Of a DNA stretch of 64,000 nt, positions 5,514 through 56,076 are shown in pieces. Source of the stretch: an uncultured bacterium (GTDB taxonomy: Bacteria > Zixibacteria > MSB-5A5 > SM1-73). Both the position numbers and the translations under genes were made by a program. The stretch is from NCBI GenBank assembly GCA_965369445.1, contig CBDUQU010000001.1, positions 1,614 to 65,613 on the forward strand, read 5' to 3'. The notes below the pieces were generated by a model. The model did no database searches, had not been told where the DNA came from, and worked only from the letters and a program-made list of their open reading frames with translations. Each line of letters opens with the position of its first letter. Positions within the stretch are counted from its first letter, which is position 1.

Positions 5514-5834
5514 TCAGTCTATTCTCTCCACTTTGAAGATCACCGGCCTGAACCAGTCCGTACAACCGACGATCAGAGTGCCGCGCTGTTTCATCCCGGG
5601 CATGTTGCCACCGTATGCAAGAATCAGCAGGTCATAGCGGATATCTGCCCAGGCCCAGTTACAGAAACCCTCTGGTGCTTGGTAGTAACGATCCAGTATG
5701 AACTCCTGGCCGTCCTTGAAAAGCTCACAGGGTTTCATAGCCTTATTTTCATCGTCTAAGTACTCATCGATCAGATCCTGGTTGATGGTCCTCTTAAGTA
5801 CTGTGATCTTGCACTCAGGCATCTTGCTGGGCAT
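5514..5834 (-). CDS. small conserved hypothetical protein (possibly TIGR04076-like)
   Basis: Start trimmed to ATG at 5834, which has a strong AAGGAGGTG upstream. Product MPSKMPECKITVLKRT...CNWAWADIRYDLL...; the family name is recollection only. The track's longer N-terminus lacks an RBS. Confidence 0.4.
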   Translation of the reverse strand: MPSKMPECKITVLKRTINQDLIDEYLDDENKAMKPCELFKDGQEFILDRYYQAPEGFCNWAWADIRYDLLILAYGGNMPGMKQRGTLIVGCTDWFRPVIFKVERID

Positions 5835-6105
5835 CTCACCACCTCCTTTTTCCGGATTCTTGGAACCTACAGAGAACCTTCCTGCTGGAGGTTTATCCGG
5901 TTGATCATATATGTCCCACGGCCCAAGAGAAACTACTAACCTAAGTAACCAGCGCATAGAAGTTCGTGAGAATTATAACTCAAGAATGGAAGAAATCAAG
6001 AAAAAACGACGCGGATCAAATCACTTTTGCAGGTTAACCATCTTCCTCAAGGCCCGAGTATGCTCCGGCGTTGTCCCACAGCACCCCCCGATACCTCTGC
6101 TGCCG

Positions 6106-7389
6106 TTACTTTGCGGCTGGGGTTTCGGCAATTTGGCGTTTGCTTTGCAGTATGACATACCAATATAGACCGGCCAAGAGCAGAGAATTAGAGAATAACA
6201 GGCAGCCGTGTCGACTATAAGTTGACCAATGAGGCAACAGGTTGAAGAATACGACGCTAGATAGCACTACTGACGGCAAAAGCAGGGCAAGAAACGGCAC
6301 CCGCTTGAATGATTTGTTTCCGCCACGAAGAATAGTCCAAACTAAGACCACCTGGCAGAACGGTAAATAGACAAAATAGTGAGGCCATGCGGTGGTAACA
6401 ACAAAGGGAATTGAGAGAAAGAGAAAAGAAAAGGCGAGGTACGTCTCATTACTTATTTTCCTCTTTCTCAGCACCCACACACAAAAAAGGTTCAATAGGA
6501 ATACAACGAATCCAATTGAGCGCAACGCTTGATACCAGATCTCATGCGAGTCGAGGTTGAATAATCGAACGATGACATGGGGGAAGAATTGTGAGTTGAT
6601 AATGTGTCTGATAGAGAAGCTCACGCTGGTAATATCCTCATATACAAGTCGATGAAAGCGTATGCTTTCACCGGGGCCGATTAACACGGACGGTATCAGT
6701 ACCAGCAAGATAATCGTTGAAACGAGAAATGATGCGATTACAGGCTTGTCTTTCCTGATCACGAAGTAAAGGATGAAGATCGCCGGATAGAGTTTTATGG
6801 ATGTAGCAAGGCCCAGAAGAAAACCTGCAATTAGCTGATGATTCCTGCGGTATGAGAAGAGTGCGCACAGAATGCAGAGGGTTATAAGACTGCTCACCTG
6901 CCCCCAATTCAGATTGTGCAAGACAGGCAAAGAAGTGACGAACAGCACGATATAACTGAAATAAGACAGCTTCAGCCCAGATTCACGCCAAAGGAAATAG
7001 GCCGGGATGAAGCAGAGAAGAAGCACTGCTATCCCTTGTAGCAAACCCCAAAGCCAGACAGCAGTTTGGAACGAGAATGCTCCAAAAACAGTCATTACCA
7101 CGGCGAAGAAAGCAGAGTAGAAAAACCCGCTGACAGGAACCTTGGTTGCGAATAGAACCTCTCCCATCGGATAGTAGCGGTCTATGAAATCACCGAACAG
7201 ATACTTTGAATCATCGATGGCCGAGACAAAAGCAGGAACCGTCTTCCACGTTGCATAGTAGTAGGCGAACGTGGCAGCAAACACCGCAACGGTGAACACA
7301 ACCAGCGACGGATTTCTACCGATGACACGGGTGAATTGGCGAACCGGCTTACTGGTCAAAGCGGAGATTCTGTTTCGAATTGATGACAT
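6106..7389 (-). CDS. polytopic membrane protein, GT-C-like (DUF2029/glycosyltransferase 87-like)
   Basis: 427 aa with at least 10 hydrophobic helices and short loops; no soluble domain. The family call is by architecture only. Confidence 0.45.
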   Translation of the reverse strand: MSSIRNRISALTSKPVRQFTRVIGRNPSLVVFTVAVFAATFAYYYATWKTVPAFVSAIDDSKYLFGDFIDRYYPMGEVLFATKVPVSGFFYSAFFAVVMTVFGAFSFQTAVWLWGLLQGIAVLLLCFIPAYFLWRESGLKLSYFSYIVLFVTSLPVLHNLNWGQVSSLITLCILCALFSYRRNHQLIAGFLLGLATSIKLYPAIFILYFVIRKDKPVIASFLVSTIILLVLIPSVLIGPGESIRFHRLVYEDITSVSFSIRHIINSQFFPHVIVRLFNLDSHEIWYQALRSIGFVVFLLNLFCVWVLRKRKISNETYLAFSFLFLSIPFVVTTAWPHYFVYLPFCQVVLVWTILRGGNKSFKRVPFLALLLPSVVLSSVVFFNLLPHWSTYSRHGCLLFSNSLLLAGLYWYVILQSKRQIAETPAAK

Positions 7390-7501: not shown

Positions 7502-8416
7502 TCAAGATAATTCCCTGTCTTGAGGGGATCGCCTCTGCCGGTCAACAGTCCTCCTCAAAGCTCTAATATGCTCCGGAGTCGTCCCGCAGCAGCCCCCAAT
7601 GATTGACACGCCCAATGAGACAAGCTCTTTGGCTTTCTCCGCCATAAACTCAGGCGTCTCAGGCCAGGCAGGTCTATCGCCCCGCATTTCCGGAATACCT
7701 GCGTTGGATTGGATGATGATTGGGAGCTTGCTGTACTTCTTAAACTCTTTGGCAATCTCTATCATATTCTCAATGCCGTTGCCGCAATTCGAACCTATGA
7801 TATCGGCTCCTGCCTCTTCCAGCCCTCGCGCGGCCTCTTGGATGCTTGTGCCCATCACTGTGAAGAAACCTTTCGGCGTCAGGTCAAAGGTCATTGCCGC
7901 CATAACAGGAGTCGACGGTGAAACCGTCTTTGCCGCTCTGGTGGCGAGTGTTGCCTCCGTTAAATCGGTCATGGTCTCTATGGAGATAGCATCAACTCCG
8001 GCGCTGATGAGAGCCTTCATCTGCCTTTCAAAACTACTGTATATCTCCTCAGGCTCAGTGTCCCCATAGGGTTTTAAGAGCTTTCCACTCGGCCCGCAGG
8101 AAGCGGAGATGTAAGCACGATCCCCCACGACCTTTCTCACCGCCAGGACGGCATTTCTGTTTATCTTTTCTGTTTTGCCGTCCAACGAATGGAGCGCAAG
8201 CCGCAAAGGCGAAGCGCCGAAGGTATTGGTCTGGATTATGTCCGCTCCTGCTTCCAGATAGAGACGGGCGATTTCCTCGAGCACCTCGGGACGGGTGAGA
8301 TTAAAAGACTCCGGCGGCTCACCTGGCTTGAGACCGTGATCCATCAGCATAGTCCCCATGGCGCCGTCGGCGACCAGTATCTCGCCGTCTTTTAACCGCT
8401 CAAGCAGATTTTTCAT
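7502..8416 (-). CDS. homocysteine S-methyltransferase domain protein (MetH N-terminal Hcy-binding module, stand-alone)
   Basis: Starts MKNLLERLKDGEILVADGAMGTMLM. Cys ligands in ...SASCGP... and GGCCGTTPEHI are typical of the zinc site in Pfam S-methyl_trans. I took the ATG at 8416; the track's longer ORF uses an upstream GTG inside a repeat element. Confidence 0.75.
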   Translation of the reverse strand: MKNLLERLKDGEILVADGAMGTMLMDHGLKPGEPPESFNLTRPEVLEEIARLYLEAGADIIQTNTFGASPLRLALHSLDGKTEKINRNAVLAVRKVVGDRAYISASCGPSGKLLKPYGDTEPEEIYSSFERQMKALISAGVDAISIETMTDLTEATLATRAAKTVSPSTPVMAAMTFDLTPKGFFTVMGTSIQEAARGLEEAGADIIGSNCGNGIENMIEIAKEFKKYSKLPIIIQSNAGIPEMRGDRPAWPETPEFMAEKAKELVSLGVSIIGGCCGTTPEHIRALRRTVDRQRRSPQDRELS

Positions 8417-8728
8417 TTCATGTCTTCTTTGAAGGGATCTTTGAGAAACTGCGCAGGGCTGGAAACCCCGCCTACGGCGACTTCTCACCCCTCACCCCCG
8501 CCTCTGGTGGTTCGACTTCGTTTATCCTGAACGAAGTTGAAGGGCTCACCACCCTGTCTTCGACCCCGCACTTCGTCCTGAGACTCAGTGTCGAAGGAAG
8601 GTCGCTCAGACTCGAGGAGAGCTCGTCGAAGGGCGGGATTTTCAACCTGACCCTCTCCCCCAGAGGAGAGAAAACTTGGTCTTCCCTCCCTTGACGGGAG
8701 GGAATAAAAGGGAGGGTGATTATGTCAA

Positions 8729-9376
8729 TTAATCTGACTCGTTTGCCTTTGTCAGTTTCTTGACACACTCCACTGCGTTAGTGCTGTCGTAACCGTACCC
8801 GTCGGCTCCTATCTGTCGCGCGAATTCCTCCGATACGGGCGCTCCACCGATTATTGTTCTAATCTTGCCTGTCAGACCTTTTTCCTTTAATAGCTCTAAG
8901 GTTCGCTTCATAACCGGCATAGTCGTCGTGAGAAGAGCAGACATCCCGATAATGGAAGCGCCCTCTGTCCTGGCAGCCTCCACAAATTTCTCAGGCGAAA
9001 CGTCGTTGCCCAGGTCGATGACTTCAAAGCCTGCGCCTTTCAGCATGATTCCCACCAGATTCTTACCTATGTCGTGCAGATCACCCTGAACCGAGCCAAT
9101 TACCACCTTCCCTACAGTGGGTATCCCCTCCTTGAGGAACAGCGGCCTGAGCACGTCCATCCCTGCATACATCGCCTTTGCAGCAAGCAGTACCTGCGGA
9201 AGGAAGATCTCGTGAGCCTTGTACCTCTCCCCTATTATGTTCATGCCTCCAATCAGGCCCTCATCCAGTATTTCCTTCGGCGGTACTTTTTGTTCTACTG
9301 CCTGTCTGGTCAGCTCAGATACTTTTTCGCCATCGCCTTGCTGTAACCGTTCGGAAATCTCGTTTAGTATCTCCAT
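8729..9376 (-). CDS. corrinoid (cobalamin)-binding protein, B12-binding_2 cap plus Rossmann B12 domain
   Basis: The DxHxxG cobalamin-ligand motif is present (VQGDLHDIGKNLV), and the Rossmann fold follows (GFEVIDLG...). The start overlaps the upstream gene's stop as TAATG (translational coupling). Confidence 0.8.
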   Translation of the reverse strand: MEILNEISERLQQGDGEKVSELTRQAVEQKVPPKEILDEGLIGGMNIIGERYKAHEIFLPQVLLAAKAMYAGMDVLRPLFLKEGIPTVGKVVIGSVQGDLHDIGKNLVGIMLKGAGFEVIDLGNDVSPEKFVEAARTEGASIIGMSALLTTTMPVMKRTLELLKEKGLTGKIRTIIGGAPVSEEFARQIGADGYGYDSTNAVECVKKLTKANESD

Positions 9377-10119
9377 TAGACTACACCTTTCTTCCTATTG
9401 GATCTCGATTCCCCAAACAGCGCCTTTATCCTTTCCTGGCAGGAGCGTGACTTGCAGACGCTGCAGAAGGGATAGGAATCGTCGAAGAGAAAAATCTCCT
9501 TGTCTCCGGCTACCAATACACCCGATATCGATTTCAAAGGTTTCATCAGAAAACTCTCAAGCAGTGCGATTCCAATATCTTCAGGACGAAGAAACTCGAA
9601 GAGTCTCTTTTGCCCGCTCATGTGCCAGCCGCAGTAACCGGGGCTGAATCTCAATACGCCTTTTGACGGGGTGATTTCTCCTTTTTCTGAGAGCAGATCG
9701 AAATACCTGCTCTCTACCCTGCCGGCTGCCTTATCAGTCCCGGCCGAGGCAACGGAGTCCAGCATACTCCCCAGCGCAAAATCATTTGCTTTGAACAGCC
9801 GGTCTATCTTTTCCGTGACCGTCTCCCCTACTGTAACGGCGAAGAGGGCGAGGTTGTCGGCTTTCGTGATGATCTCATCCAGCGGTGTGTCCTGTTCATT
9901 TAATCCTTCGCCTTTGTAGCGAGCTTTGAATTCAGGAATGGCTATGTCCGAGATGACAGCTCTGGGTTTAGAGAATTCGAGAAAAAGGTCCATTGCCTTC
10001 CCGAGAAGCGTCTTCACGTCCCCAGTTAGCTCTTGGCCGGAAGGGATGCCCTGAGTTTCCAGGACGCTATCCTGGTCTGGCTTTGCTTCGTCGAGAGGAA
10101 TTTCGAGTATCCTTCTCAT
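9376..10119 (-). CDS. methionine synthase activation-domain-like protein (Met_synt_B12-like, stand-alone)
   Basis: LRFSPGYCGWHMS...LLESFLMKPLKSISGV resembles the RPAPGYPACPEH...LTESFAMWPGASVSG segment of the E. coli MetH activation domain. It sits between the MttB-like gene (ATGA overlap) and the corrinoid protein. Confidence 0.5.
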   Translation of the reverse strand: MRRILEIPLDEAKPDQDSVLETQGIPSGQELTGDVKTLLGKAMDLFLEFSKPRAVISDIAIPEFKARYKGEGLNEQDTPLDEIITKADNLALFAVTVGETVTEKIDRLFKANDFALGSMLDSVASAGTDKAAGRVESRYFDLLSEKGEITPSKGVLRFSPGYCGWHMSGQKRLFEFLRPEDIGIALLESFLMKPLKSISGVLVAGDKEIFLFDDSYPFCSVCKSRSCQERIKALFGESRSNRKKGVV

Positions 10120-11576
10120 AAATCTTTATGAGGCAAGCTCTCCATACCGCAGCGACGAGCCTCTCCCTCCATTAGTTTCGTCAACTCCTTCTTTGTATCG
10201 TCGGGCAGCCTGGAAGGCTCATATTTCCTGATCAGTTTTTCCACCTCGCTGTGTGCTCTCTCTAAGAGCGTCTTGCCGCCCTCCTCCAGCCATCTGGCTC
10301 TGCTCGCCCGATCAATAACCGATCCCGGCAGATGGAACTCTTGCTTGAGATATCGAAGCGTATGTTTCGATATGAGCAGGTGTTTTTCCTTGAGCAGTTC
10401 CTCGAATCTGGGGAGTGACGGAAAATCCTCTTTAGGCTCGATGCCTTTTATCATGCGAAGGGTCATCCCGCAAATTTCGTTGTCCAAGACGAGCTTCTCC
10501 AAGCTCTGGCAGCTTTCGAAATCAAGCATTCCGGGGCCGGATATGTTATTGATACCGGAGAGGGCCGCCAGCGTTGCTCCCATCGAGGATTCCAGACCGG
10601 CCTGGGCGTCAAGCTGTTTGGCATCACTGAGTGATATGTAGGCCTGCGTGGGCATACCCAGGTGTTTTCCGATCTCGTTGTACGCGCAGTCTATCATCTG
10701 CGTCTCCACCGCGCCCATGGGCGTGGTCTCGTATCGAACGTCGAATATGGCCGGCGAGCCGCCGTAAAGAACGGGCGCGCCCGGATTGGCGAGCTGGCTT
10801 ATCACCACGCCGCTTAAGGTCTCGGCGGTATGCTGTACCAAAGTTCCCACCAGGGTGACCGGCGCCATGAATCCCGATAAGGGCATGGAGACGAACTCCA
10901 CGGGGATTGAATACTGCGCGCAGTCGACAAGATTTTGAGAGGTTACATCGCTCCATTTCAAAGGGGAAGTCGGGCAGCAGGAAAATATGGTCAGCGGTTT
11001 GGCGGCAAGCTCCTCTTTGGATCCGCGGACGGCAAGCTGCAAGTCCCTCATTATGTTGAATGCCTCGATGGTAAATGCCCCGGTGACCACCGGCTTTTCA
11101 CAGAAAAGAAGCGAAAGGTAAAGCCGGTAGCTGTCTGATATCTTCTCGTGCACGTCGGCGGGTATGAAGGCCGTGCTCTGGGAGGCGATGTGATCGAGCC
11201 GGCTAACGAGCCTGGCATATCTGACATAATCAGCCGTTGTGGGTCTGCGAATCTTCCCTGTGCCAGAGTCTAAGATATTCAACGCCGCAGAACCGGGTGT
11301 GAAATAGACGTTGTACTCCGAGAAATCGTGCGTTTCCTTGCCCAGGACGTCGAAGAGTTTGAAGGACTCAGGAACCGTCTGCAAGGCTCGATCGATGATC
11401 TCATCCGTGAAAAGGACGTGGTATCCGTCCATCTCTACCTTTGCCCCATGCTCCTGCAGCATTGAGAGAATATTCTTGTTGTGAATCTCCACGCCGAGCT
11501 TGCACAGGACCTCCCTCGCTTCCGAGATTATCCTATCCCTTAGCTCATCATTTAAGAATCTCACCACCGGCCTCAT
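10116..11576 (-). CDS. MttB-superfamily (trimethylamine/quaternary-amine):corrinoid methyltransferase, non-pyrrolysine type
   Basis: 486 aa from the ATG at 11576, which has AAGGAG 6 nt upstream. The size, the hydrophobic Gly-rich C-terminal half (ISGPGMLDFES...LDNEICG) and the corrinoid neighbours fit the family. There is no in-frame amber codon. Confidence 0.6.
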   Translation of the reverse strand: MRPVVRFLNDELRDRIISEAREVLCKLGVEIHNKNILSMLQEHGAKVEMDGYHVLFTDEIIDRALQTVPESFKLFDVLGKETHDFSEYNVYFTPGSAALNILDSGTGKIRRPTTADYVRYARLVSRLDHIASQSTAFIPADVHEKISDSYRLYLSLLFCEKPVVTGAFTIEAFNIMRDLQLAVRGSKEELAAKPLTIFSCCPTSPLKWSDVTSQNLVDCAQYSIPVEFVSMPLSGFMAPVTLVGTLVQHTAETLSGVVISQLANPGAPVLYGGSPAIFDVRYETTPMGAVETQMIDCAYNEIGKHLGMPTQAYISLSDAKQLDAQAGLESSMGATLAALSGINNISGPGMLDFESCQSLEKLVLDNEICGMTLRMIKGIEPKEDFPSLPRFEELLKEKHLLISKHTLRYLKQEFHLPGSVIDRASRARWLEEGGKTLLERAHSEVEKLIRKYEPSRLPDDTKKELTKLMEGEARRCGMESLPHKDL

Positions 11577-11689: not shown

Positions 11690-11718
11690 TTGACAGTACG
11701 TAAGTACTTACGTAAATT
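11690..11718 (+). promoter_or_regulatory. sigma-70-like promoter (TTGACA-N17-TAAATT) with an embedded 16-bp perfect palindrome ACGTAAGTACTTACGT (11698-11713); putative MarR operator
   Basis: Read directly in the 185-bp divergent spacer between the MttB operon and the MarR-GNAT gene. Confidence 0.4.
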
Positions 11719-11761: not shown

Positions 11762-12730
11762 GTGGATTTACTAAAGCAACTGGGACCCTTGGCCCTGGCC
11801 AGTCGATTCAGGCGGCTGGCCGACTGGCTGTACAAGGACGGACCCCGCATTTACCGGGAGCGGTCGGCCGATTTCGAGCCCCGCTGGTTTCCCCTCTTCT
11901 ACCTTCTCAAGGAATCGGGTTCAGTCTCGGTGACGGCTGCGGCATCGGCGCTGGGATACAGCCATCCGGCGGTCAACCAGATTGCAGGTGAGATGGCCGT
12001 GCGAGGGTTTCTCGAATCGATCAAGGATAAGAAAGACGAGCGTAAGCGTCTCTTGCGCCTGACCAGAAAAGGGAAAGCTGCCGTATCGCGGTTGGAACCG
12101 GTGTGGGCGGATATCGAAGCTGCCGCCGGCGAGCTTGTGACTGAGGCCGGTACTGATTTCTTGGCCGCCGTCGGGCGGCTGGAAGATGCCCTGGAAGAAA
12201 CCGGGGTATACGAGCGGGTGATGCGCCGGGTCAAAAAGCGCCAACTGGAGAGAGTGGAAATCATCGACTACAAGCCGCAGTTCAAACGGTATTTCAAGTC
12301 GCTCAACCTCGAATGGCTCAAGAAGTACTTCGTTGTCGAGGATGAGGACGAGCAACTGCTCTCCGATCCGTATGGGAGAATCATCAAGGCGGGAGGGTTT
12401 GTTCTATTCGCCCGCCTTGACGGCAAAATAGTGGGTACGACAGCCCTGCTCAAGCATGACAAACATACCTACGAATTGACCAAGATGGCTGTTGCCAGGC
12501 GAGCGCAGGGCCGCCAGGTGGGACGCAAACTTGCACTTGCGGCGATCGAAAGGGCAAAGAAGGCAGGCGCAAAGCGGCTGGTTTTACTTACCAGCCCCCC
12601 ATTGACCGCAGCGTGCAACCTCTATCGCTCCCTGGGTTTCGTGGAGGTATCGCTTGCACAGCCCTGGGCAACTGCCTACAAGCGTGAATCAACTGCGATG
12701 AGTCTGGATTTGAAGAGAAAAAAACCTTAA
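11762..12730 (+). CDS. MarR-family winged-helix regulator fused to a C-terminal GNAT acetyltransferase domain
   Basis: GTG start at 11762 with GGAGG 6 nt upstream; the track's longer ORF overlaps the MttB start. The N-terminus carries a wHTH (SVSVTAAASALGYSHPAVNQIAGEMAVRGFLESIKDKKDERKRLLRLTRKG). The C-terminus carries the GNAT core (LFARLDGKIVGTTAL...RRAQGRQVGRKL). Confidence 0.6.
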   Translation: MDLLKQLGPLALASRFRRLADWLYKDGPRIYRERSADFEPRWFPLFYLLKESGSVSVTAAASALGYSHPAVNQIAGEMAVRGFLESIKDKKDERKRLLRLTRKGKAAVSRLEPVWADIEAAAGELVTEAGTDFLAAVGRLEDALEETGVYERVMRRVKKRQLERVEIIDYKPQFKRYFKSLNLEWLKKYFVVEDEDEQLLSDPYGRIIKAGGFVLFARLDGKIVGTTALLKHDKHTYELTKMAVARRAQGRQVGRKLALAAIERAKKAGAKRLVLLTSPPLTAACNLYRSLGFVEVSLAQPWATAYKRESTAMSLDLKRKKP

Positions 12731-16193: not shown

Positions 16194-17013
16194 AACGTTT
16201 GAACTCAGCGGTTTAAAAGCATTAGCTTTTAATCCGCTGAAGCGAATTGTTATTTGGTTTCTTTGATATTCCTAGTTTTTTGCAAATCCATTTTTCATAT
16301 TTTTTATCAATTGAAATTATACATCTATCCCAATGATCTTTTTCATCAATTTCTAAAGCTTCGTCATATTTTCTGATAAAATCTGATATAGAAATGTTGT
16401 CTGCTAGTACTTTTGCTTTAGTGCGTACCTGTGATGGCAGTTCGCTAAAGCTAATTGTTGACTTTTCAAGAATTATTCGGAAATATATTTTCTCTGCCTC
16501 AGAAACATTTTGCAGATTGGCGGATAATCTTTCCTCTACGGAATAATATCGTTTAGGAAGTTCCTTTTCTAGCTTTGATGGCAATTCATCAATGTTTTTA
16601 TATCTTATTTGTACTAGACCTGATAAATTAGACGGAAGATGTTTTTGATAGCTCCCCTTTTTGGTTTCTCGAATAAGCAATATTACATTTAATTGCTTAG
16701 CCAGGGCATACCCTAGCTCGATGTGGACATTTCGATTTTGGGATTTTGTTTCGAAGACGCAAAAAGCGCTTCTGTCCATTTGTTTTATCAACTCTTCCCA
16801 TAGCCACTTACCTGCATCAACAAATGGGGTTATTTCCATATTCTGTTTTGCTAAAAATTGTTTTACTTTCTTGTATAGTTTTTGGCCGCGAGAGTTTTTT
16901 TTAAATTCATGTCCATAGAAACATTTATGGTAATCTTTTAAATTTGTCTTTTTTGGTGAAAGCATTTCTTGTTCCTTTCAATTTTATTCTCACACAACGC
17001 TTGAACTGAGCGG
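16194..17013. repeat. 18-bp imperfect direct repeats (AACGTTTGAACTCAGCGG at 16194-16211; AACGCTTGAACTGAGCGG at 16996-17013) bracketing the TIR/NDT-like gene
   Basis: Read directly; 16/18 identical and in the same orientation. Confidence 0.6.
16222..16965 (-). CDS. TIR-like / nucleoside 2-deoxyribosyltransferase-like domain protein with an uncharacterised C-terminal half
   Basis: 247 aa at about 33% GC. The N-terminal 120 aa follow the flavodoxin-like TIR/NDT pattern (FYGHEF...FVDAGKWLWEELIKQMDRSAFCVFETKS...NVHIELGYALAKQLNVILLI, with an ELGYA motif as in the NDT family). The C-terminal 120 aa have no recognisable family. Confidence 0.45.
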   Translation of the reverse strand: MLSPKKTNLKDYHKCFYGHEFKKNSRGQKLYKKVKQFLAKQNMEITPFVDAGKWLWEELIKQMDRSAFCVFETKSQNRNVHIELGYALAKQLNVILLIRETKKGSYQKHLPSNLSGLVQIRYKNIDELPSKLEKELPKRYYSVEERLSANLQNVSEAEKIYFRIILEKSTISFSELPSQVRTKAKVLADNISISDFIRKYDEALEIDEKDHWDRCIISIDKKYEKWICKKLGISKKPNNNSLQRIKS

Positions 17014-17230: not shown

Positions 17231-17395
17231 CTAAGCCCCTTTCTTCATCATTGTTAGAAATGAAGACCGGAGCGTATCGCTCATAAGGGCCTTTTTCACC
17301 GGCGGCAGTTTCAGGAATCCGCCGATGAAGCCGCGCATGAACGAGTGAGTGATGCTCTGCGGAATTCCCTTAGGTGGGAAGGGGAAGGGTTTATA
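17231..17395 (-). pseudogene. 3' relic (last ~54 codons plus stop) of a paralog of the 4Fe-4S protein gene at 32232..33488
   Basis: About 85% nucleotide identity to 32235-32360. In-frame translation gives ...PQSITHSFMRGFIGGFLKLPPVKKALMSDTLRSSFLTMMKKGA*, against ...PQSITHSFMRGFIGGFLRLAPVKKALMSDVLRSSFLGMMNKGA* in the intact gene. There is no start codon; an in-frame TGA lies immediately upstream, at the edge of an 11-bp-stem hairpin. Confidence 0.6.
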
Positions 17396-17478: not shown

Positions 17479-18654
17479 TCACGATTCGACCCGCAGAACC
17501 CTGTCGGGAATCCTGACCCTCTCGGGCTTAGAACCTTCTTCCGGATGCTCAAAGATGGGCAAATACCGCACTGCCATAGCGAAGATGAAGAATCCGGTGG
17601 CTACCAGAGCCAGGGTGACGGCGATCTCCATCCATGACGGAAAGTAGTTGACCCCGGACGAAGCCACGAAACCGGTCGTGGACACGTTTAATCTGTTCAG
17701 CAAAAACCCGACGATGGTGCACACCGCCGCTATGTAAAGTCCCCTGGTGGAGAGCCTTATCTTTCGTATCGAGAGCAGGACGATGGGAACGATTATTCCT
17801 GCTAAGATCTCCAACCAGAAGAGCCCGGTCTCCATGCGGAGGAGGAAGAGTTCCGACCAAACACCTCGCATGAAGAAATCATAAATCTTCATAAGCAGGT
17901 AAATCACCAAAACCACCAGAAGGATTCTTCCAATGTCCGCCAGCACGTCCTGCTTCAGGCGGTGACCGAAAGCTCTAAAGCTCAGGTGTGATTCAAAAAT
18001 GACCATGGCGCATCCTGCCGCAATCGCGGAGACGTAGAACAGCAGAGGCAGAGACGCCGAGTACCAGAGCGTGTATAGCCTGTGAGGCACGATCAAGAAC
18101 AACGAACCCAAAGAGGACTGGTGCATGGTGGAAAGGACGACTCCCAGTATGACCAGGGGAACCGTTATCCTGCCTATCCATCTCTTGGGCCCGCTCCAGC
18201 CCAAACGTTCGAAGAGGTTCGGACTGAATTCGAAAAACAACACCCCGGTGTATAACATGACGCACATGGCTACCTCAAACAACGGGGAATGGAAGTTGCC
18301 CATAAAGAGAGGATTGTATAGCTTGTCCGGGCGTCCCACGTCAAAGAGAAGACCTACGATCACCAGAAGGTACCCCAAAAAAGCGGTTAAGATGGCGGGT
18401 TTCAGAACGGGATAGAACCGCTTAACGTGAAACACGTAAACTGCCGCCGCCAGGGTAAACCCGCCGGCGGCCAACCCCACTCCCGATATGACGTCGAAAC
18501 CAACCCACAGCCCCCAGGGAAACCTATCACTCAAATTAGTAGCTGCCCCCAGGCCGCCGGTGAAACGGACAATGGTCGCTATAAGGCCAGCCACCCAGGT
18601 CAGAAGCAGGACTACTTTCCAGAAAGTTATCTTGAACGGTAATTTGATACTCAC
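17479..18654 (-). CDS. NrfD/PsrC-family polytopic membrane subunit of a quinone-interacting redox complex
   Basis: 391 aa with 8-10 TM helices and no cofactor motifs. It sits immediately downstream of a 4Fe-4S NrfC/HybA-type partner. Confidence 0.65.
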   Translation of the reverse strand: MSIKLPFKITFWKVVLLLTWVAGLIATIVRFTGGLGAATNLSDRFPWGLWVGFDVISGVGLAAGGFTLAAAVYVFHVKRFYPVLKPAILTAFLGYLLVIVGLLFDVGRPDKLYNPLFMGNFHSPLFEVAMCVMLYTGVLFFEFSPNLFERLGWSGPKRWIGRITVPLVILGVVLSTMHQSSLGSLFLIVPHRLYTLWYSASLPLLFYVSAIAAGCAMVIFESHLSFRAFGHRLKQDVLADIGRILLVVLVIYLLMKIYDFFMRGVWSELFLLRMETGLFWLEILAGIIVPIVLLSIRKIRLSTRGLYIAAVCTIVGFLLNRLNVSTTGFVASSGVNYFPSWMEIAVTLALVATGFFIFAMAVRYLPIFEHPEEGSKPERVRIPDRVLRVES

Positions 18655-18712
18655 CTTGATCTCCTTCTCGTTATCAGCCTTCGATCGCTTTGCAGCTGCA
18701 CGTTTGTATCTT

Positions 18713-19468
18713 CTATTTCAACTCAGAGTCCTGCTGCTTGTTTTTGTATTCGGCCAACTCCATCCTGCGGTCGATAATCCACCATACCCCGTAAAGGAAT
18801 GCACCGCCGAAGATGGCTATGCTGGGAACACTTTTGAGCGCTGCCCAGGTAAGCTCAGGCAGGGGACGATCCCCAAGGTTGCCGGGGAAGCCGAGCGTCT
18901 CAAGTGGAACGCTGGACAGGATCAAAACAGACGTTCCACCAATTTCCTTCTCGCCGTATATGTGGTCCACATACAGATCCGGATTTTCTTCTATGCGTTT
19001 CCGCGCCACCCTGATCAGCTCATCTCGATCTCCGAATATGGTGGCCTCGGTGGGACATGCTTCGGCGCAGGCGCTAATCTTTCCTTCCTTCTGCCTCTCG
19101 TAGCACATGGTGCATTTTCTCACCTTGGGCGCACGTTTGTCCCATTCATAAGTCGGGACGGTGAAGGGACAGGCCTGCATGCAGTAGCGACACCCTATGC
19201 ATTTGTGTGCGTGATATATTACCGCACCCTCCGGAGTCTTCTCGAATGCCCCTACCGGGCATACTGAGGCACAGGAGGGGTCGTTACAGTGCATGCACAG
19301 TTGACGATAATAGACGCTGTCCTTTTCCTTCACCACGGTATAGGCTGTGGAGGAGAGCTCCTTTTCTTCCTCCCCTGGAAGGCCATTGGCCTCCTTGCAG
19401 GCTAAAGCGCAAAGCTGACACCCGATACACTTGGTGATATCTATCAGAAGCGCTTTGGGTTTTGTCAT
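18713..19468 (-). CDS. 4Fe-4S ferredoxin-type iron-sulfur subunit (NrfC/HybA/DsrO-like) with a C-terminal membrane anchor
   Basis: Four CxxCxxCxxxCP-type clusters (CIGCQLCALAC; CMHCNDPSCASVCP; CIGCRYCMQACP; CTMCYER...CAEACP) and a C-terminal helix (SIAIFGGAFLYGVWWII). Confidence 0.8.
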   Translation of the reverse strand: MTKPKALLIDITKCIGCQLCALACKEANGLPGEEEKELSSTAYTVVKEKDSVYYRQLCMHCNDPSCASVCPVGAFEKTPEGAVIYHAHKCIGCRYCMQACPFTVPTYEWDKRAPKVRKCTMCYERQKEGKISACAEACPTEATIFGDRDELIRVARKRIEENPDLYVDHIYGEKEIGGTSVLILSSVPLETLGFPGNLGDRPLPELTWAALKSVPSIAIFGGAFLYGVWWIIDRRMELAEYKNKQQDSELK

Positions 19469-19573: not shown

Positions 19574-20185
19574 TTAGCTCGCTGCTTCCGGTGCAGCGTC
19601 CGCCGCGGCACGTTTCGATCTCGAGGCCACCGTCCCTTTTTCAACCAGCCGATCGAGCACCAGGTCTGCCGGAACGGCTTGACCCTTGGCCAGGGCTCTC
19701 ATCATGGCGTCGGATAGCTCCTCCGGGGTGAATGGCTTGGGCACGTAATCGGATACCCCGGCCCTCATGGCTTTGATCGAGGTTTCGACCGAGGGATAGC
19801 CGGTAATCAGAATGACCGCCATGTTAGGATTTTCCTTCTTTATTCTTCTGGCTACTTCAATCCCATCGATCTCCGGCATCTTCCAGTCAGCGATCAACAC
19901 GTCGAATTCACTGCTCTTGGCCTTGCTCAAGGCCTCCTCTCCGGACAAAGCCACATCCACCTTGTAGCCTTCCCGGGTCAGGATCTTCTTGCAACTGTTG
20001 CACACAGTCTGCTCGTCGTCCACCACCAGGACGCTGGCGGCCGATCTGGCGGTGGCAGCAAGCGCAACAGCAGGTCGGGCAGAAGCGGTCATCTCCACCC
20101 TCTCCTCTACCCTCTTACCTCGTCTGACCAGAACATCGATCAATATGGCCGCTATGAACGTGAACACTACCAACAAAGCTACCAT
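19574..20185 (-). CDS. membrane-anchored single-domain response-regulator receiver (REC) protein
   Basis: N-terminal TM helix, then a CheY-like REC domain (VLVVDDE...DVLIADWKMPEIDG...ITGYPSVE...KPF). Confidence 0.65.
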   Translation of the reverse strand: MVALLVVFTFIAAILIDVLVRRGKRVEERVEMTASARPAVALAATARSAASVLVVDDEQTVCNSCKKILTREGYKVDVALSGEEALSKAKSSEFDVLIADWKMPEIDGIEVARRIKKENPNMAVILITGYPSVETSIKAMRAGVSDYVPKPFTPEELSDAMMRALAKGQAVPADLVLDRLVEKGTVASRSKRAAADAAPEAAS

Positions 20186-20221
20186 TTCTCACTCCTTTTG
20201 TTTTGGCTGTCATTTGCTGAA

Positions 20222-20890
20222 TCAGTCCAGGGGTCTTTTCCCGGCAAGCGCTTTGACAATGCCAGCGAACACGGTGAAAATCACTATCGGACCCAGGGCG
20301 ATGAAGAATAGCCTGGAAAAAACCGGGGCTAAGACGGATTTGAAGACGAACTTTATCGGACCGACCTTAGGCTCTTCTGCAGGCATAGGAGCCACCGCCG
20401 GAGCGGTCACGGCTTCTTCCCTGACCACCTCTGCCACCATGGGCTTAGCCTTCGGGCTTACCACCCCTTTTTCGATCAACCGATCCAGCACCAAATCTGT
20501 CGGTACAGCCTGACCTTTGGCCAGGGCTCTGATCATGGCGTCGGACAGCTCTTCCGGGGTGAAGGGCTTCGGCACATAGTCGGATACCCCGGACCTGATG
20601 GCTTCAATCGAGGTCTCCACCGAGGGATAGCCGGTGATCAATATCACCGCAATCTCGGGATTCTCCCTCTTGATTCTTCTGGCCACCTCCATTCCATCCA
20701 TCTCCGGCATCTTCCAATCCGAGATGACCACGTCGAATCCGTTTCTTTTGATCTTGCTCAACGCCTCCTCGCCGGACAAAGCCACATCCACGTTGTAGCC
20801 TTCCCGGATCAGGATCTTCCTGCAGCTGGAGCAGACGGTCTTTTCGTCATCCACCACCAGGACATTCGGTTTACGTTTCATTTTAATCAC
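20222..20890 (-). CDS. REC-domain protein with a C-terminal membrane anchor
   Basis: Paralog of the preceding gene (VLVVDDE...VVISDWKMPEMDG...). The C-terminal hydrophobic tail is FSRLFFIALGPIVIFTVFAGIV. Confidence 0.65.
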   Translation of the reverse strand: MIKMKRKPNVLVVDDEKTVCSSCRKILIREGYNVDVALSGEEALSKIKRNGFDVVISDWKMPEMDGMEVARRIKRENPEIAVILITGYPSVETSIEAIRSGVSDYVPKPFTPEELSDAMIRALAKGQAVPTDLVLDRLIEKGVVSPKAKPMVAEVVREEAVTAPAVAPMPAEEPKVGPIKFVFKSVLAPVFSRLFFIALGPIVIFTVFAGIVKALAGKRPLD

Positions 20891-20895
20891 TCCCT

Positions 20896-21912
20896 TCAGT
20901 CAGCCCCCTGGGGGCTAACATGACAAAATAGAGGTTTCACCACCGCGCCCAGGATAATGGGCAACAAAGCCGGGAAGAAAAGCCGAGAGGCCAAAGCAGA
21001 CAGGAAGAGCTTTCCTATGGGGACCTTAGCCTGGTGATGCTCTTTCCCCAACCTTCCGGTTGGTTCCGGCTCTGGTTTTTCCTTTATCTCCAGTTCTGTT
21101 TTGACGCTTAGTCCTAAACCCGGGGGAATCACTCTATGTTCAGAATTCAGTTCATGTCTCGCCTGGTCTGACGGAATGGAGACATTGCCTGACCAGTTTT
21201 TTAGATCCTCTTCTAAGTAGAAAGGTTCCAGTTGAACGATCCATCCCTTTCCGAATGGATCTTTGTTGATCAAGTCGGTATTGAAGTTGATCTCATAGTT
21301 GATTTTGACCAGCCGGCCACGAACGGGCACGAGAAGTTTGTGCATCTGCTTGTCGGAAGCCAGTATCCTGATAAACAGTCTTCCTTGTTCGACCCTGCTC
21401 TGGTGACAGGGTAAGTCGACGTAAAGGATGTCGCCCACCGATTCCCTGAACAGGTTGTTTACCCCCACCTTGACAGTGCCGTTCTCCTCTATCTTGGCCC
21501 AGATATACTTCTGATAATGCAGCAGGTCTGTCCTTCCGCTCTTTCGCTCCTGCAGGGCCTTTCTTAGCACTTGCGTTAATTGATCAGGGCTGAGAGGCTT
21601 GGGAACGTAGTTGGAAACGCCCAATCTCATCGCCTGGACCGCGGATTCCACTGACGGATATCCGGTTATCATTATCACCACCATATCCGGATGATTCTTT
21701 TTCACGATCCTCAGGACCTCCATCCCGTCGATCTCCGGCATTTTCCAGTCGGCGATGAGCACGTCATATTTATCCTCTTCCACTTTCTTGAGGGCTTCTC
21801 GTCCGTTCAGAGCAATTTGCACATTGTGTCCTGCTCGGCTCAATATCTTCCGGCAGCTATTGCAAACTATCTCCTCATCATCCACCACTAATACATTTGC
21901 TCGGTACGGCAT
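20896..21912 (-). CDS. REC domain, GcvH-like (glycine-cleavage H / lipoyl-like) domain, then a C-terminal membrane anchor
   Basis: REC domain at the N-terminus. The central KYIWAKIEENGTVKVGVNNLFRESVGDILYVDLP...LINKDPFGKGWIVQL matches the GcvH pattern (E.G...VGITD.A...LGDIVFVELP ... DPYGEGWL). The C-terminal tail is ASRLFFPALLPIILGAVV. Confidence 0.6.
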   Translation of the reverse strand: MPYRANVLVVDDEEIVCNSCRKILSRAGHNVQIALNGREALKKVEEDKYDVLIADWKMPEIDGMEVLRIVKKNHPDMVVIMITGYPSVESAVQAMRLGVSNYVPKPLSPDQLTQVLRKALQERKSGRTDLLHYQKYIWAKIEENGTVKVGVNNLFRESVGDILYVDLPCHQSRVEQGRLFIRILASDKQMHKLLVPVRGRLVKINYEINFNTDLINKDPFGKGWIVQLEPFYLEEDLKNWSGNVSIPSDQARHELNSEHRVIPPGLGLSVKTELEIKEKPEPEPTGRLGKEHHQAKVPIGKLFLSALASRLFFPALLPIILGAVVKPLFCHVSPQGAD

Positions 21913-23048
21913 CTCCTATCACCTGCCTTTCTGTTCTTTCCGCTTCTCCTATAGCGCAAGAGATGTGCCGATTGTGACTTTTTTCACAAAGATTCGCCAA
22001 GCCTTTCAGTTAATGGCTTGAAATATAAGAGCTTATGTTTCGTGCCGAAGAACGAGGATGGGTGTATTCTGCAGATTCAGCCGAGTTGGTGCATGTCAAA
22101 GTTATGCACCGAAATCAGAGGGTTTTGTTGAGATACAAAGACTTAGGAGGAATTCGCGGTGTATAGGAAAAATATATAGTGAATACGTTTCATATACGTT
22201 TTTAGCACGTAGGTCCGAAATCCTCCGCCTCGGGCAGCGATTTCAGACATGATAAACTTCCCTCCCTCGATGGTTCGACAAGCTCACCACAAGTGGGAGG
22301 GAATAAAAGGGAGGGTGAAATGAGGTATTCTCTCGTTGGTAACGGACACCTTGTCCGTTACCCTTCAACTTCGTTCCCTTCGGGTCTGCCCAGACGGATC
22401 CGTAGGACAGCCTGCTTGACAGTTTCTCTTGTAGCCGCAGACTTCAGTCTGCGGGGGCGGATGGCGGGGGGCTCACAGGGTGATTGTCGGGCACCCCAAC
22501 GGCCCTTCGACAAGCTCAGGGCGGGATCGCCCTACAGGCCCATCCGGGCACCCCAACCCGCAAGTCTGGACTTGCTGGACATACTGGACTTGCTGGACTT
22601 TGTTTTTGGTTTTTTTTATGGTTCGAAGTCCGGGGTCGAGATAGAAGATCGTTATCCCGGAGGGGGGCGTTGGCCCCTGGCTGGGTTTTGGTGTTTGTGA
22701 ACCCGACGGCGGAGAGGGACCGACCCACCGGGTGACAAGTGAGCCGGTTTTCTTTGGAGTTGGTATGAAGCAGATGATTCATATGATTCTTATCCTCCCG
22801 AAAGTTACGGCTCATACAATAAACAATCGTCTCCTCAATAATACTGGAGCAATCTCTTTCACCATCAAAGTTCTTTTGAATTTGGTCTTTGTGGTAAGAG
22901 AGACACGCATTGGCGGTCTTTTTGTCCCCCTGAGAAGGGGTTCACCCTGAAGGGGGAAATCGAAGATCCGTAGAACAGGGGGTTATTGTATTTCTCCCCC
23001 TGATAAGGGGGACACAGGGGGTTCCATGTTGATTTCGTACCATTTTCC

Positions 23049-23257: not shown

Positions 23258-24712
23258 ATGTTCGAGCAGACCTTCAAAAACATCGACGATGTGCTCTGGA
23301 AGGAGGCGGGGTGTTCGTCCGAGCTGGACTATACGGAACAATCCTCCTGGATGCTGTTCCTCAAATACCTCGATGACCTGGAGCAGGAACGGGCCATGCG
23401 CGCGAAATTGCGAGGCAAGTCCTACGAGTTCCTCCTGGAAAAACGCTTCCGGTGGTCCAGTTGGGCCGCGCCAAAAAACCGCGCCGGAGAGTTTGACCAC
23501 GACAAGGCGCTTACCGGCGACGACCTCATCGACTTCGTCAACCGTGAGCTCTTTCCCTACCTCCAGGGCTTCAAGCAGCGCGCCGCCAGCCCCGACACCA
23601 TCGAGTACAAGATTGGCGAGATCTTTGGCGAGATCAAGAGCAAATTCCAGAGCGGCTACAGCCTGCGGGACACGCTGGAACTGATGGACGCCCTGCGCTT
23701 CCGTTCGCAGAAGGAAAAGCACGAGCTGTCCCACCTTTACGAAGCCAAGATCAGGAACATGGGCAATGCCGGCCGCAACGGCGGCGAGTACTACACCCCC
23801 CGTCCGCTGATTCGCGCTATGGTCCGGGTGATCAAACCCAAGATCGGCGAGCGGATATATGACGGGGCTTGCGGTTCGGCGGGCTTCCTGTGCGAGTCCC
23901 ACGACTACCTGCGCAAGGGCAAACTGACCACCAGCCAACTCAAGAAACTCCAGACCAAGACCTTCTATGGAAAAGAGAAGAAGAGCCTGGCCTACGTCAT
24001 CGCCATCATGAACATGATCCTGCACGGCATCGACGCTCCCAACATCCTCCACACCAACACCCTGTCCGAGAACATCATGGACATCCAGGAGAAGGACCGC
24101 TTCAACGTCATCCTCGCCAATCCGCCCTTCGGCGGCAAAGAGCGCAAGGAAGTCCAGCAGAACTTTCCCATCAAGACCAGCGAAACCGCCTTCCTCTTCC
24201 TCCAGCACTTCATCAAATCGCTCAAGGCCGGCGGCCGCGCGGCGGTGGTCATCAAGAACACCTTCCTCTCCAACTCCGACAACGCCTCCCGCGCCCTGCG
24301 TCAGGAGCTGCTCGAAAACTGCAACCTCCATACTATTCTCGACTGCCCCGGCGGCACCTTCCTCGGGGCGGGCGTGAAGACCGTAGTGCTATTCTTCGAG
24401 AAGGGCGCGCCCACACGGAAAACATGGTACTACCAACTCAATCCCGGCCGGAGCCTGGGCAAGACCAACCCGCTCAACGACGACGACCTCAAGGAGTTCG
24501 TGAAACTGCAGGCCAAGTTCAAGGATTCTGAGCAGTCCTGGACCGTGAACATTGCCGACGTGGATCAGGAGACCTTCGACCTCTCCGTCAAGAACCCCAA
24601 CACGCCGGAGGAAGCCCCGCTTCGCGAACCACGGGAAATCGTCGAGGAGATGGCCGCGCTGGATGCCGAGAGCGCCAAGATCCTTGATGGGATTCGGGGG
24701 ATGCTGCGGTGA
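23258..24712 (+). CDS. hsdM: Type I restriction-modification system DNA methyltransferase subunit
   Basis: N6-adenine methyltransferase motif IV NPPFG (ILANPPFGGKERKE) and the SAM-binding region (IYDGACGSAGFL); operon position before hsdS/hsdR. Confidence 0.9.
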   Translation: MFEQTFKNIDDVLWKEAGCSSELDYTEQSSWMLFLKYLDDLEQERAMRAKLRGKSYEFLLEKRFRWSSWAAPKNRAGEFDHDKALTGDDLIDFVNRELFPYLQGFKQRAASPDTIEYKIGEIFGEIKSKFQSGYSLRDTLELMDALRFRSQKEKHELSHLYEAKIRNMGNAGRNGGEYYTPRPLIRAMVRVIKPKIGERIYDGACGSAGFLCESHDYLRKGKLTTSQLKKLQTKTFYGKEKKSLAYVIAIMNMILHGIDAPNILHTNTLSENIMDIQEKDRFNVILANPPFGGKERKEVQQNFPIKTSETAFLFLQHFIKSLKAGGRAAVVIKNTFLSNSDNASRALRQELLENCNLHTILDCPGGTFLGAGVKTVVLFFEKGAPTRKTWYYQLNPGRSLGKTNPLNDDDLKEFVKLQAKFKDSEQSWTVNIADVDQETFDLSVKNPNTPEEAPLREPREIVEEMAALDAESAKILDGIRGMLR

Positions 24713-43141: not shown

Positions 43142-43531
43142 ATGAGAAAGTTTTTCTATCTCTTGCTGGCCGTCTGTCTGCCCGTCCTTCTCCCCACCAG
43201 CCTTTACGCCTGGGACATGTGTGAGACTTCAGTGGAGACTCTCGACGTGGCCGGGGAAGTGACCTTCACTTCATCTTTCTGCGACTGCGTGGATGGGGAT
43301 GTGATCATCATCGAGCTCTGGCCGGCAGACCCGGGGGTGACGATCGACAGTGTGGCCTTCACCAAAGCAACGCCGCATTGGAAGAGCAACGAAAGCTGGG
43401 CGGAACAGGGTGGAGTTACCTTCTATGCAGTAGACGCCATACTCCACAAGGTGACGGAGAAGACGCACACAATCCACCTCTGGGTGTACCTCTCTACCGG
43501 GGAGCACATCGGGGTGAATGCCCACTTCTAA
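43142..43531 (+). CDS. small secreted Cys-containing protein, hypothetical
   Basis: ATG at 43142 with AAGGAGG upstream; signal peptide MRKFFYLLLAVCLPVLLPTSLYA; ends ...HIGVNAHF*. Confidence 0.5.
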   Translation: MRKFFYLLLAVCLPVLLPTSLYAWDMCETSVETLDVAGEVTFTSSFCDCVDGDVIIIELWPADPGVTIDSVAFTKATPHWKSNESWAEQGGVTFYAVDAILHKVTEKTHTIHLWVYLSTGEHIGVNAHF

Positions 43532-45736: not shown

Positions 45737-45990
45737 CCGAGGGTCGGATGTCCTACGGATCCGTTGGAAATCCGACCCCTACAAATCCCTCCCCGACCTT
45801 ATCCGCTTGATCCGTTCAGTCCGTTGACTGCTGCTGCAGGGGTGGAAGCCCTGCCTACGAGCCTGGCCTTAGATTTATCCGTTTCATCCGTTCCATCCGT
45901 TGACCCATCCGCTCAATCCGTCCGGACGGACGCCCCCAGACGGGCCCGTATGGGCGTCTGGGCGCTTCATCCGTTGACCGATTTACCTCT
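45737..45990 (+). repeat. intergenic repeat: conserved 9-bp-stem hairpin GGGTCGGATGTCCTACGGATCCGTTGGAAATCCGACCC followed by iterated ATCCGTT(G/C/T)A units; second copy at 47874-48010
   Basis: Roughly 50 nt are near-identical at the two loci, both in the 5' spacers of minus-strand genes (ddl, ispD). A shorter ATCCGTT array also occurs at 28443-28480. Confidence 0.6.
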
Positions 45991-47855: not shown

Positions 47856-48011
47856 GACTACCTCCAGGTCATTCGGGTCGGATGTCCTACGGATCCGTTG
47901 GAAATCCGACCCCTACAAATCCCTCTAAGATTCTATCCGTTGCATCTGTTTAATCCGTTGACCCATCCGTTGCATCCGTTTAATCCGTTGACCCATCCGG
48001 TGACCAACTTT

Positions 48012-55826: not shown

Positions 55827-56076
55827 TACCTCACCCCCTTTTCTTCCCCCTCTGTTTTATGGAGAGGGGTTCACCCTGCCCTTCGGTCCTGCCCTTCGGT
55901 CCTGCCCTTCGGTCCTGAGACCTCAGGGTCGAAGGAAGACCTCAGGGTCGAAGGAAAGGGATTTCCCTCGATCCTGCACTTCGTCCTGAGACTCAGTGTC
56001 GAAGGAAGATCTTCGGGATCGAAGGACACCCTGAAGGGGGAACAGGGGGAGAGGTTGACGAAAGGATGAATCAAAA

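Follow-up and report, generated by a model that had tools for sequence, protein, structure and literature searches.

A four-gene cluster in Zixibacteria and a proposed corrinoid-dependent, folate-independent route to methionine with an MttB-like protein on the donor side

The window considered here is a 64,000-nucleotide stretch of DNA from an uncultured bacterium of the Zixibacteria (contig CBDUQU010000001.1), in which four successive genes on the minus strand, within positions 7502-11576, encode the parts of a putative corrinoid methyl-transfer system. Domains were assigned with the Pfam gathering cut-offs and the NCBIfam equivalog cut-offs. The most upstream gene, mttB-like (10116-11576), encodes a 486-aa protein that would serve as methyltransferase 1 (MT1) and matches PF06253 (E 4e-75, 253 bits against a cut-off of 25). 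It is followed by act (9376-10119, 247 aa), whose product resembles the activation domain of MetH (PF02965, 41.2 bits against a cut-off of 25), and by cor (8729-9376, 215 aa), which encodes a corrinoid protein with B12-binding_2 (PF02607) and B12-binding (PF02310) domains. The last gene, hcyMT (7502-8416, 304 aa), encodes the presumed methyltransferase 2 (MT2), a homocysteine methyltransferase (PF02574, E 1e-68, 232.5 bits against a cut-off of 22). An earlier reading of the bare sequence, here called the original prediction, had placed the same genes at these positions and made the same four domain calls, and profile matches for every open reading frame (ORF) agree with it. The nearest homologues, at 93-95% identity, come from metagenome-assembled genomes (MAGs) of Candidatus Zixiibacteriota.

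An AAGGAG ribosome-binding site lies 6 nt 5' of the mttB-like ATG; mttB-like and act overlap by 4 nt (ATGA), and act and cor by 1 nt (TAATG). The original prediction had all four genes translationally coupled. This holds for the first three, but hcyMT starts 312 nt downstream of cor, and coupling is therefore confined to three of the four genes. The gap (8417-8728, with no strand assigned) is an intergenic insert of dispersed REP-like (repetitive extragenic palindromic) hairpin repeats, recognized by its folding and by copies elsewhere in the window. As predicted, it holds repeats, copies of which stand at 22295-22318 (24/24 positions identical) and 55976-56008 (33/33). Strong hairpins form when the gap is folded, with a minimum free energy of -123.5 kcal/mol. 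An intrinsic terminator in the gap was rejected, as no terminator-like site was present on the coding (minus) strand and the counts were not above those of shuffled controls. A riboswitch or leader RNA in the gap or upstream was likewise rejected, with zero Rfam matches at the gathering thresholds. As cor and hcyMT are contiguous or overlapping in 39 of 49 related loci, the gap is an insertion particular to this lineage. Short GC-rich hairpin repeats of this REP- or MITE-like (miniature inverted-repeat transposable element) kind were seen in intergenic DNA at 8417-8728, 22295-22318, 22361-22376, 55900-56017 and 2456-2490, and several modules are common to the gap and the other sites. In one lineage of WOR-3, a gene of the PDDEXK_3 nuclease family lies between cor and hcyMT (L002:10942-11325; also in loci L003 and L004). 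With a nuclease gene in one lineage and repeats in the other at the same place, the cor-hcyMT junction seems to tolerate insertions.

To see how far the gene set is kept, we scanned one genome per GTDB species and found 282 relatives, of which the best 80 are 71-93% identical. These 80 include Zixibacteria, WOR-3, Stahlbacteria, TA06, Cloacimonadota, Ignavibacteria, Phycisphaerae/Planctomycetota and Aminicenantes/Acidobacteriota, as well as Gemmatimonadota, Fermentibacteria, Aegiribacteria, Krumholzibacteriia, Elusimicrobiota, Bacteroidota and one deltaproteobacterium. Gene order was counted in the 55 loci with enough sequence downstream of mttB. The order MttB-Act-Cor-Hcy was kept in 46 of these, across more than 12 mostly uncultured phyla; the variants lacked Act alone (three loci), had Cor (one) or Act (one) as the sole partner, or had the MttB-like gene alone (four). 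Median identity to the window proteins was 76% for the MttB-like protein, 69% for Cor, 66% for HcyMT and 48% for Act. When all ORFs of 82 loci were clustered, every neighbour family other than the four occurred in at most seven loci, and no RamA or transporter recurred, nor any pterin-binding methyltransferase within 8 kb of the cluster. A conserved neighbour encoding RamA, a transporter, a pterin methyltransferase or MTHFR was therefore rejected, no fifth family being found in more than 7 of the 82 loci. The few recurrent neighbours reflect lineage-specific synteny: YjbQ, a sigma factor and a tetratricopeptide-repeat protein, to which inspection by eye added cyclophilin-like and aldo-keto-reductase-like genes. 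In the exceptional loci the neighbours were unrelated. A pterin-binding domain was also absent from the operon and from the annotated large ORFs of the window, and RamA/DUF4445 from the annotated window ORFs of at least 400 aa, although a RamA gene may lie elsewhere in the genome. Thus, a canonical MetH (TIGR02082) is not what the operon encodes, its pterin module being missing, and the absence of that module, claimed from the start, extends from the operon to the large window ORFs and the 82 related loci.

The acceptor side of the cluster is of the MetH type. HcyMT matched the PF02574 profile over its full length, and its best match in the PDB was the homocysteine domain of Thermotoga maritima MetH (E 4e-54), ahead of BHMT (~1e-20) and MmuM-type enzymes (1e-13). 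Far from lacking zinc ligands, a possibility that had been raised against it, the protein carries the predicted GGCCGT site, and the three zinc cysteines C211, C276 and C277 (in GSNCG and GGCCGT) are 100% conserved in 52 homologues. The motifs DGAMGT, NTFGA and IETM, of which DGAMGT, NTF and IETM surround homocysteine in the structures of MetH and BHMT, are conserved as well. We rejected BHMT itself as an identity for this protein, because the BHMT model NF005718 scored 219.8 bits, below its cut-off of 338, and PDB entries of BHMT matched at ~1e-20 compared with 4e-54 for MetH. The invariable adjacency of hcyMT to a corrinoid gene also counts against BHMT.

Cor contains the base-off/His-on motif D-x-H-x-x-G in the form GDLHDIG (D99-L-H101-D-I-G), and GDLHDIGKN is invariant in 63 homologues. 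Its matches were strongest to 1Y80 (E 2e-57) and to MttC (7XCN_M, E 4e-43), and weaker to the B12 domain of MetH (E 9e-30). With PF02607, PF02310 and the DxHxxG motif together, it has the make-up of a methylotroph corrinoid protein. The best NCBIfam matches were MtgC/pyl_corrinoid models, all of them equivalogs below cut-off, so that Cor is not placed in any specific substrate class. Judged by these matches, Cor is of the methylotroph MttC/MtgC type and not of the MetH type. This bears on the original prediction, which described the operon as split and methionine-synthase-like. The homocysteine and activation modules are indeed of the MetH type, but the B12 module is not. The domains thus make the system a chimera and not just a MetH cut into separate proteins: its donor half is of the kind found in methylamine methyltransferases, and its acceptor and repair half of the MetH type.

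Act provides the repair function. It matched the T. maritima protein TM0269 (PDB 1J6R) with E 1.4e-7 by sequence and 8.5e-10 with a profile. An AlphaFold2 (AF2) model of Act was built with database homologues (predicted local distance difference test score, pLDDT, 85), and a Foldseek search with it again gave TM0269 as the top match (E 3.5e-13, TM 0.80 on the target), followed by the MetH reactivation domains of E. coli, Thermus and human. The RxxxGY motif, whose role in binding S-adenosylmethionine (AdoMet) is known from E. coli MetH, is conserved as R157-F-S-P-G161-Y162. Profile, fold and motif thus identify Act as a MetH activation domain of the TM0269-like kind. Act also contains four cysteines that are 98-100% conserved: C163, which immediately follows G161-Y162 of the AdoMet motif, and C219-X2-C222-X4-C227. 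The CX2CX4C motif is also found in the distant Act versions of two related loci (L086 and L095). In the corrinoid Fe-S protein subunits AcsC and CdhE, a CX2CX4CX16CP motif ligates a [4Fe-4S] cluster (PMC4023990). The same CX2CX4C spacing makes an Fe-S site for electron entry during reductive reactivation plausible in Act, and the conserved cysteines suggest a metal or Fe-S site.

The MttB-like protein is aligned to PF06253 over residues 3-469, which places it in the MttB superfamily. It might have belonged with non-methyltransferase relatives, but the superfamily-conserved residues D116, D141, K161, E252, D279, D318, K320, D323, E329, R423 and W429 are all present. The claim that it lacks an amber codon stands: the whole ORF has zero in-frame TAG codons, and the position of Pyl334 in Methanosarcina barkeri MttB is taken by Leu316 (codon CTC). 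A true trimethylamine (TMA) methyltransferase MttB (TIGR02369) was rejected on these grounds, with no UAG and a score of 360.6 bits against a cut-off of 525. A sub-threshold Rfam match to PYLIS_3 was found within the mttB-like coding sequence (10532-10629, minus strand; 32.9 bits against a gathering threshold of 38, E 4e-4), beginning in register at Leu316, the codon that replaces pyrrolysine. Because UAG is absent, this match most likely reflects coding conservation of the SDAKxxDxQAG stretch and not a functional element.

What methyl donor might such a protein use? Assigning a substrate by nearness to MtgB or MttB was rejected as uninformative, since the PDB structures of the two match the MttB-like protein alike (E ~1e-52 each; 27% identity and 181 bits for MtgB, 29% and 180 bits for MttB). 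To our knowledge, demethylation of TMA without pyrrolysine has no precedent. Glycine betaine is bound in MtgB by Y97, F356, R312 and H348 (Picking et al., 2026; PMC13080624), and R312 is kept in every characterised non-pyrrolysine member of the family, all of which act on acidic quaternary amines (PMC13080624). In our alignment, Y97, R312, H348 and F356 of MtgB correspond to S96, Q311, S346 and E354 of the MttB-like protein, so that the binding residues of the MtgB type are not present. Each replacement is shared by 76-80 of the 81 clade sequences, and they lie inside an invariant DFESC motif. In a search of 1.84 billion representatives, the wider subfamily, which is large, uncharacterised and was followed down to ~37% identity, retained S96, H or Q at 311, Y313, S346 and mostly E354, and almost never had Arg at 311. 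The R312 criterion served here as a proxy for a comparison with MtcB, MtpB, MtyB and MthB. Because the betaine-binding residues of MtgB, including the arginine, are replaced, glycine betaine, carnitine and proline betaine, all proposed as donors in the original prediction, are unlikely to be used. An acidic residue stands where MtgB has its cation-pi Phe, and this, together with Y313 and F353, instead suggests a cationic compound of the methyl-ammonium type without a carboxylate or phosphate acid group.

More distant homologues indicate which half of the system the MttB-like protein serves. At 47-49% identity, the gene set was found in permuted form, as Hcy-Act-MttB (locus L086) and Cor-Hcy-Act-MttB (L095). 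A homologue at 49% identity is accompanied by a methyltransferase 2 of the URO-D type instead, and by a nitroreductase (L094:3792-4823), while one at 40% lies beside MtmB and two corrinoid proteins (L091:1-1986). Both of these MttB-like proteins have an S/H/S/E pocket signature, and the subfamily therefore also feeds acceptors other than homocysteine. A gene set that survives rearrangement, and in which the acceptor can be swapped, is what functional coupling predicts if the MttB-like protein stands on the donor side. As far as gene content goes, these contexts show that the acceptor module is exchangeable and point to the MttB-like protein as the donor-side enzyme.

Taken together, we consider it probable (at about 60%) that the cluster encodes a self-contained route to methionine by four proteins, cobalamin-dependent and folate-independent, built like a three-component corrinoid methyltransferase system. 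The MttB-like TIM-barrel MT1 would take a methyl group from a small non-folate donor and place it on the Co(I) form of the corrinoid protein. The zinc-dependent HcyMT, as MT2, would then pass it to homocysteine, yielding methionine and regenerating Co(I). The Co(II) form would be restored by Act through reductive methylation with AdoMet and an electron, which may enter through a metal or Fe-S site that its conserved cysteines would form. We infer the direction of methyl flow from the chemistry of the MetH-type homocysteine module and from the logic of AdoMet-dependent repair. This repair yields methyl-Co(III), and coherent chemistry then needs a methyl acceptor such as homocysteine. A corrinoid relay to homocysteine, the central proposal of the original prediction, is thus well supported by the domains, the motifs, the gene order in 46 of 55 loci and the permuted sets, and every computational test applied to it came out in its favour.

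The gene set has been noticed before. Williams et al. (2022, Environ Microbiol; PMC9324843) described it in Candidatus Electryoneota and "diverse bacteria", and independently suggested that it makes methionine with an unknown compound as methyl donor. The folate-free relay, which the original prediction called a non-textbook route, is therefore not a new idea, having been in print since 2022 (PMC9324843). The Zixibacteria cluster belongs to this already described, still uncharacterised cluster type: its genes, of the same four families, lie side by side on one strand, pyrrolysine and a folate module are both absent, and the suggested function is the same. Complete MAG chromosomes that carry the cluster include CP070839.1, CP070802.1, CP070686.1, CP070718.1 and CP070685.1. 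It differs in the REP-like insert before hcyMT and in a divergent gene for a MarR-GNAT fusion protein. The cluster is known in that paper from the genes alone, without an analysis of the pocket or of the cysteine motif; the pocket replacement and the Act cysteine motif are the two findings that go beyond it. Zixibacteria MAGs with "MttB" as their sole corrinoid methyltransferase and without MetH were reported in a survey of 2025, whose authors read this as use of TMA (PMC12484752). MAGs with MttB alone would also fit a stand-alone role of the cluster.

Several characterized systems share parts of this architecture. The closest solved relatives of HcyMT and Act are T. maritima TM0268 (1Q7M) and TM0269 (1J6R). 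These proteins, reportedly described by Huang and co-workers in 2007, already provide an example of reactivation by a separate, AdoMet-dependent protein. Unlike HcyMT, TM0268 includes a module that binds folate as well as a B12 domain; TM0269 has Gly at the position of C163 of Act in the aligned part, and its C-terminal tail falls outside the alignment. MtgB-MtgC-MtgA of Desulfitobacterium hafniense and MttB-MttC-MtbA of Methanosarcina have the same MT1/corrinoid/MT2 logic, the same MT1 fold family and the same type of corrinoid protein. In the present cluster, by contrast, the acceptor enzyme is a MetH-type homocysteine methyltransferase and not a tetrahydrofolate (THF) or coenzyme M methyltransferase, the activator is of the AdoMet type and not RamA, and MT1 has neither the pyrrolysine of MttB nor the Y97/R312/H348/F356 of MtgB. 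The core-MetE synthases MesA-MesD and BHMT also make methionine from homocysteine without methyl-THF, and the donors of MesA and MesB are probably corrinoid proteins (Price et al., 2021; PMC7857596). However, MesA-MesD have an unrelated fold of the MetE type, and BHMT takes the methyl group straight from betaine, with no corrinoid involved, whereas the cluster combines a MetH-type homocysteine module with an MttB-family donor side.

A further related system is that of the aerobes Ruegeria and Phaeobacter. A split MetH in Phaeobacter inhibens is said to have been described by Price and colleagues in 2018. In Ruegeria, an MttB-family enzyme and corrinoid, pterin-binding and homocysteine methyltransferase proteins were shown genetically to be intertwined (Mausz et al., 2025; PMC12478193). 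Like the cluster, the MtgB-MtgC-MtgD/MtgE system has an MttB-family enzyme with separate corrinoid and homocysteine proteins, and it uses one carrier for both demethylation and methionine synthesis. Its genes are dispersed, its pterin-binding MtgD is essential, reactivation is by RamA/DUF1638 and the donor is glycine betaine. The cluster described here is a compact operon with no pterin module, reactivation of the AdoMet/TM0269 type and no betaine-binding residues, and its hosts are mostly anaerobic candidate phyla. Could the cluster nevertheless work as MtgBCDE does? Cor, HcyMT and Act would then be a split MetH whose pterin module is encoded elsewhere; Cor would be loaded from methyl-THF, and the MttB-like protein would be an auxiliary methyl input, or a drain of methyl groups to THF for catabolism. 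The R. pomeroyi genetics give this arrangement a precedent, since there one corrinoid protein is common to the MttB-family enzyme, the pterin-binding methyltransferase and the homocysteine methyltransferase (PMC12478193). Our view is moreover limited to 64 kb of the genome, and the Electryoneota MAGs that have the cluster also encode a canonical MetH (PMC9324843), a fact that equally tells against the route proposed here. We nonetheless regard such sharing as rather unlikely, because no pterin-binding gene recurs around the 82 loci or shows among the annotated large ORFs of the window, because the four-gene set stays one unit in three different gene orders, and because Cor is of the MttC/MtgC type whereas Ruegeria MtgC has been reported as a distinct lineage near CmuA.

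It is less probable still that the cluster serves mainly for catabolic or detoxifying demethylation of some abundant osmolyte or compound of the environment, as a corrinoid-dependent analogue of BHMT in which homocysteine would be a sink recycled through the S-adenosylmethionine cycle and methionine a by-product. Other MttB-family systems are catabolic, the conserved MarR-type regulator and candidate operator that adjoin the operon in this lineage suggest inducible expression, and a gene for an NhaC-family transporter follows a 57%-identical homologue (L088). But no transporter, downstream demethylase or gene for one-carbon oxidation accompanies the cluster as a conserved neighbour, the MttB-like protein varies unusually little from phylum to phylum (by the median identity given above), as would be expected for core biosynthesis, and homocysteine pools are small and thus a poor sink for bulk catabolism. 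More remote is the idea that the PF02574 protein methylates another thiol (sulfide, methanethiol or a cofactor thiol), or that the MttB-like protein binds a methyl-pterin and not an amine. PF02574 proteins are generic zinc thiol methyltransferases, and the pocket of the MttB-like protein is unlike that of every characterised member, so that its substrate class is a prediction. HcyMT, however, is ~45% similar to a true MetH homocysteine domain over its full length and keeps DGAMGT, NTF and IETM, and we know of no MttB-family member that binds pterins; on these grounds we give the idea very little weight. The folate-independent route to methionine remains our preferred interpretation, and besides the MetH of the Electryoneota MAGs the following points weigh against it. 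Because 312 nt of hairpin repeats set hcyMT apart from the other three genes in the window, its co-transcription with them is presumptive. In 9 of 55 loci mttB lacks one or more of its adjacent partners. The donor pocket was deduced by sequence alignment to MtgB at 27% identity, and the cluster type is known from genes alone. Finally, a MetH, a MetE or a pterin-binding partner may lie outside the 64-kb window.

The region upstream of the operon contains a candidate control element. As read from the sequence, a perfect 18-bp palindrome, TACGTAAGTACTTACGTA, lies at 11697-11714 (no strand assigned) in the divergent promoter region, where it overlaps a promoter-like site of the plus strand (11690-11718, score 10/12). 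Its core, GTAAGTACTTAC, is conserved upstream of mttB in four related loci (L006, L007, L010 and L018). The divergent gene (11762-12730, plus strand) starts with GTG, 7 nt downstream of a GGAGG site, and encodes the MarR-GNAT fusion (MarR_2 and Acetyltransf_1 domains); it is found at the same position, at 80-90% identity, in L006, L007, L010 and L013. Gene and palindrome core are kept in the nearest relatives and not in other phyla. We infer that the MarR-GNAT protein is a candidate lineage-specific regulator of the operon and the palindrome its candidate operator. On the other side of the cluster, the minus strand carries a GT87-family glycosyltransferase gene (6106-7389), 112 nt past the hcyMT stop, and a TIGR04076-family gene (5514-5957), neither of which is kept with the cluster in other phyla.

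Other features of the window were recorded in passing. Three tandem response-regulator paralogues (19574-21912, minus strand) have in common a 300-nt repeat with 61-82% identity, and in the third the response regulator is joined, in an unusual combination, to a lipoyl-carrier domain of the glycine-cleavage H-protein. A complete type I restriction-modification system, HsdM, HsdS and HsdR, occupies 23258-28421 (plus strand), and near it lies a weak TIR-domain ORF of the CAP12/Pycsar-like kind (16222-16965). A 132-nt direct repeat with 81% identity (17231-17362 and 32232-32363) links the 3' end of a gene for a 418-aa ferredoxin-domain protein (32232-33488) with a site just downstream of an NrfD-like/4Fe-4S pair (17479-19468). 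Direct repeats of ~135 nt with 80-90% identity stand 867 nt apart at 43504-43638 and 44372-44505, each with a hairpin CCGCCGGAA...TTCCGGCGG, and motifs similar to GAAAGGAGGTGAGAACCG occur nearby at 42867, 43122 and 43914. Two intergenic regions ~2.1 kb apart (45741-45990 and 47875-48009) have in common an 88-nt repeat with 86% identity, followed by arrays of 9-10-nt units that contain ATCCGTT and end with CCGTTGAC.

It is tempting to go further than the route outlined above, although this extension is tentative and may well not hold in full. The four-gene unit could be a stand-alone, fifth kind of methionine synthase, B12-dependent and folate-independent, and the sole route to methionine in lineages without MetH and MetE. 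Its MttB-like subunit would use a non-acidic donor that is new to the superfamily, without pyrrolysine or the conserved arginine (choline, a simple methylamine and tetramethylammonium being candidates). Act would carry a [4Fe-4S] cluster of its own, with the CX2CX4C spacing of the corrinoid Fe-S proteins, and this would wire reactivation to ferredoxin and not to flavodoxin. The system is small, with four soluble proteins of 215-486 aa, and is directly testable. If the relay to homocysteine works as proposed, many uncultured phyla of sediment and groundwater, including Zixibacteria, WOR-3, Stahlbacteria, Cloacimonadota, Phycisphaerae, Acidobacteriota and Gemmatimonadota, can make methionine without methyl-THF, with a methylated compound of the environment or of metabolism as the methyl source. 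Reconstructions that score such genomes as TMA-utilising or as methionine auxotrophs would then change, a B12-dependent sink would be added to the cycling of methylated amines, and the MttB superfamily would gain a new substrate class.

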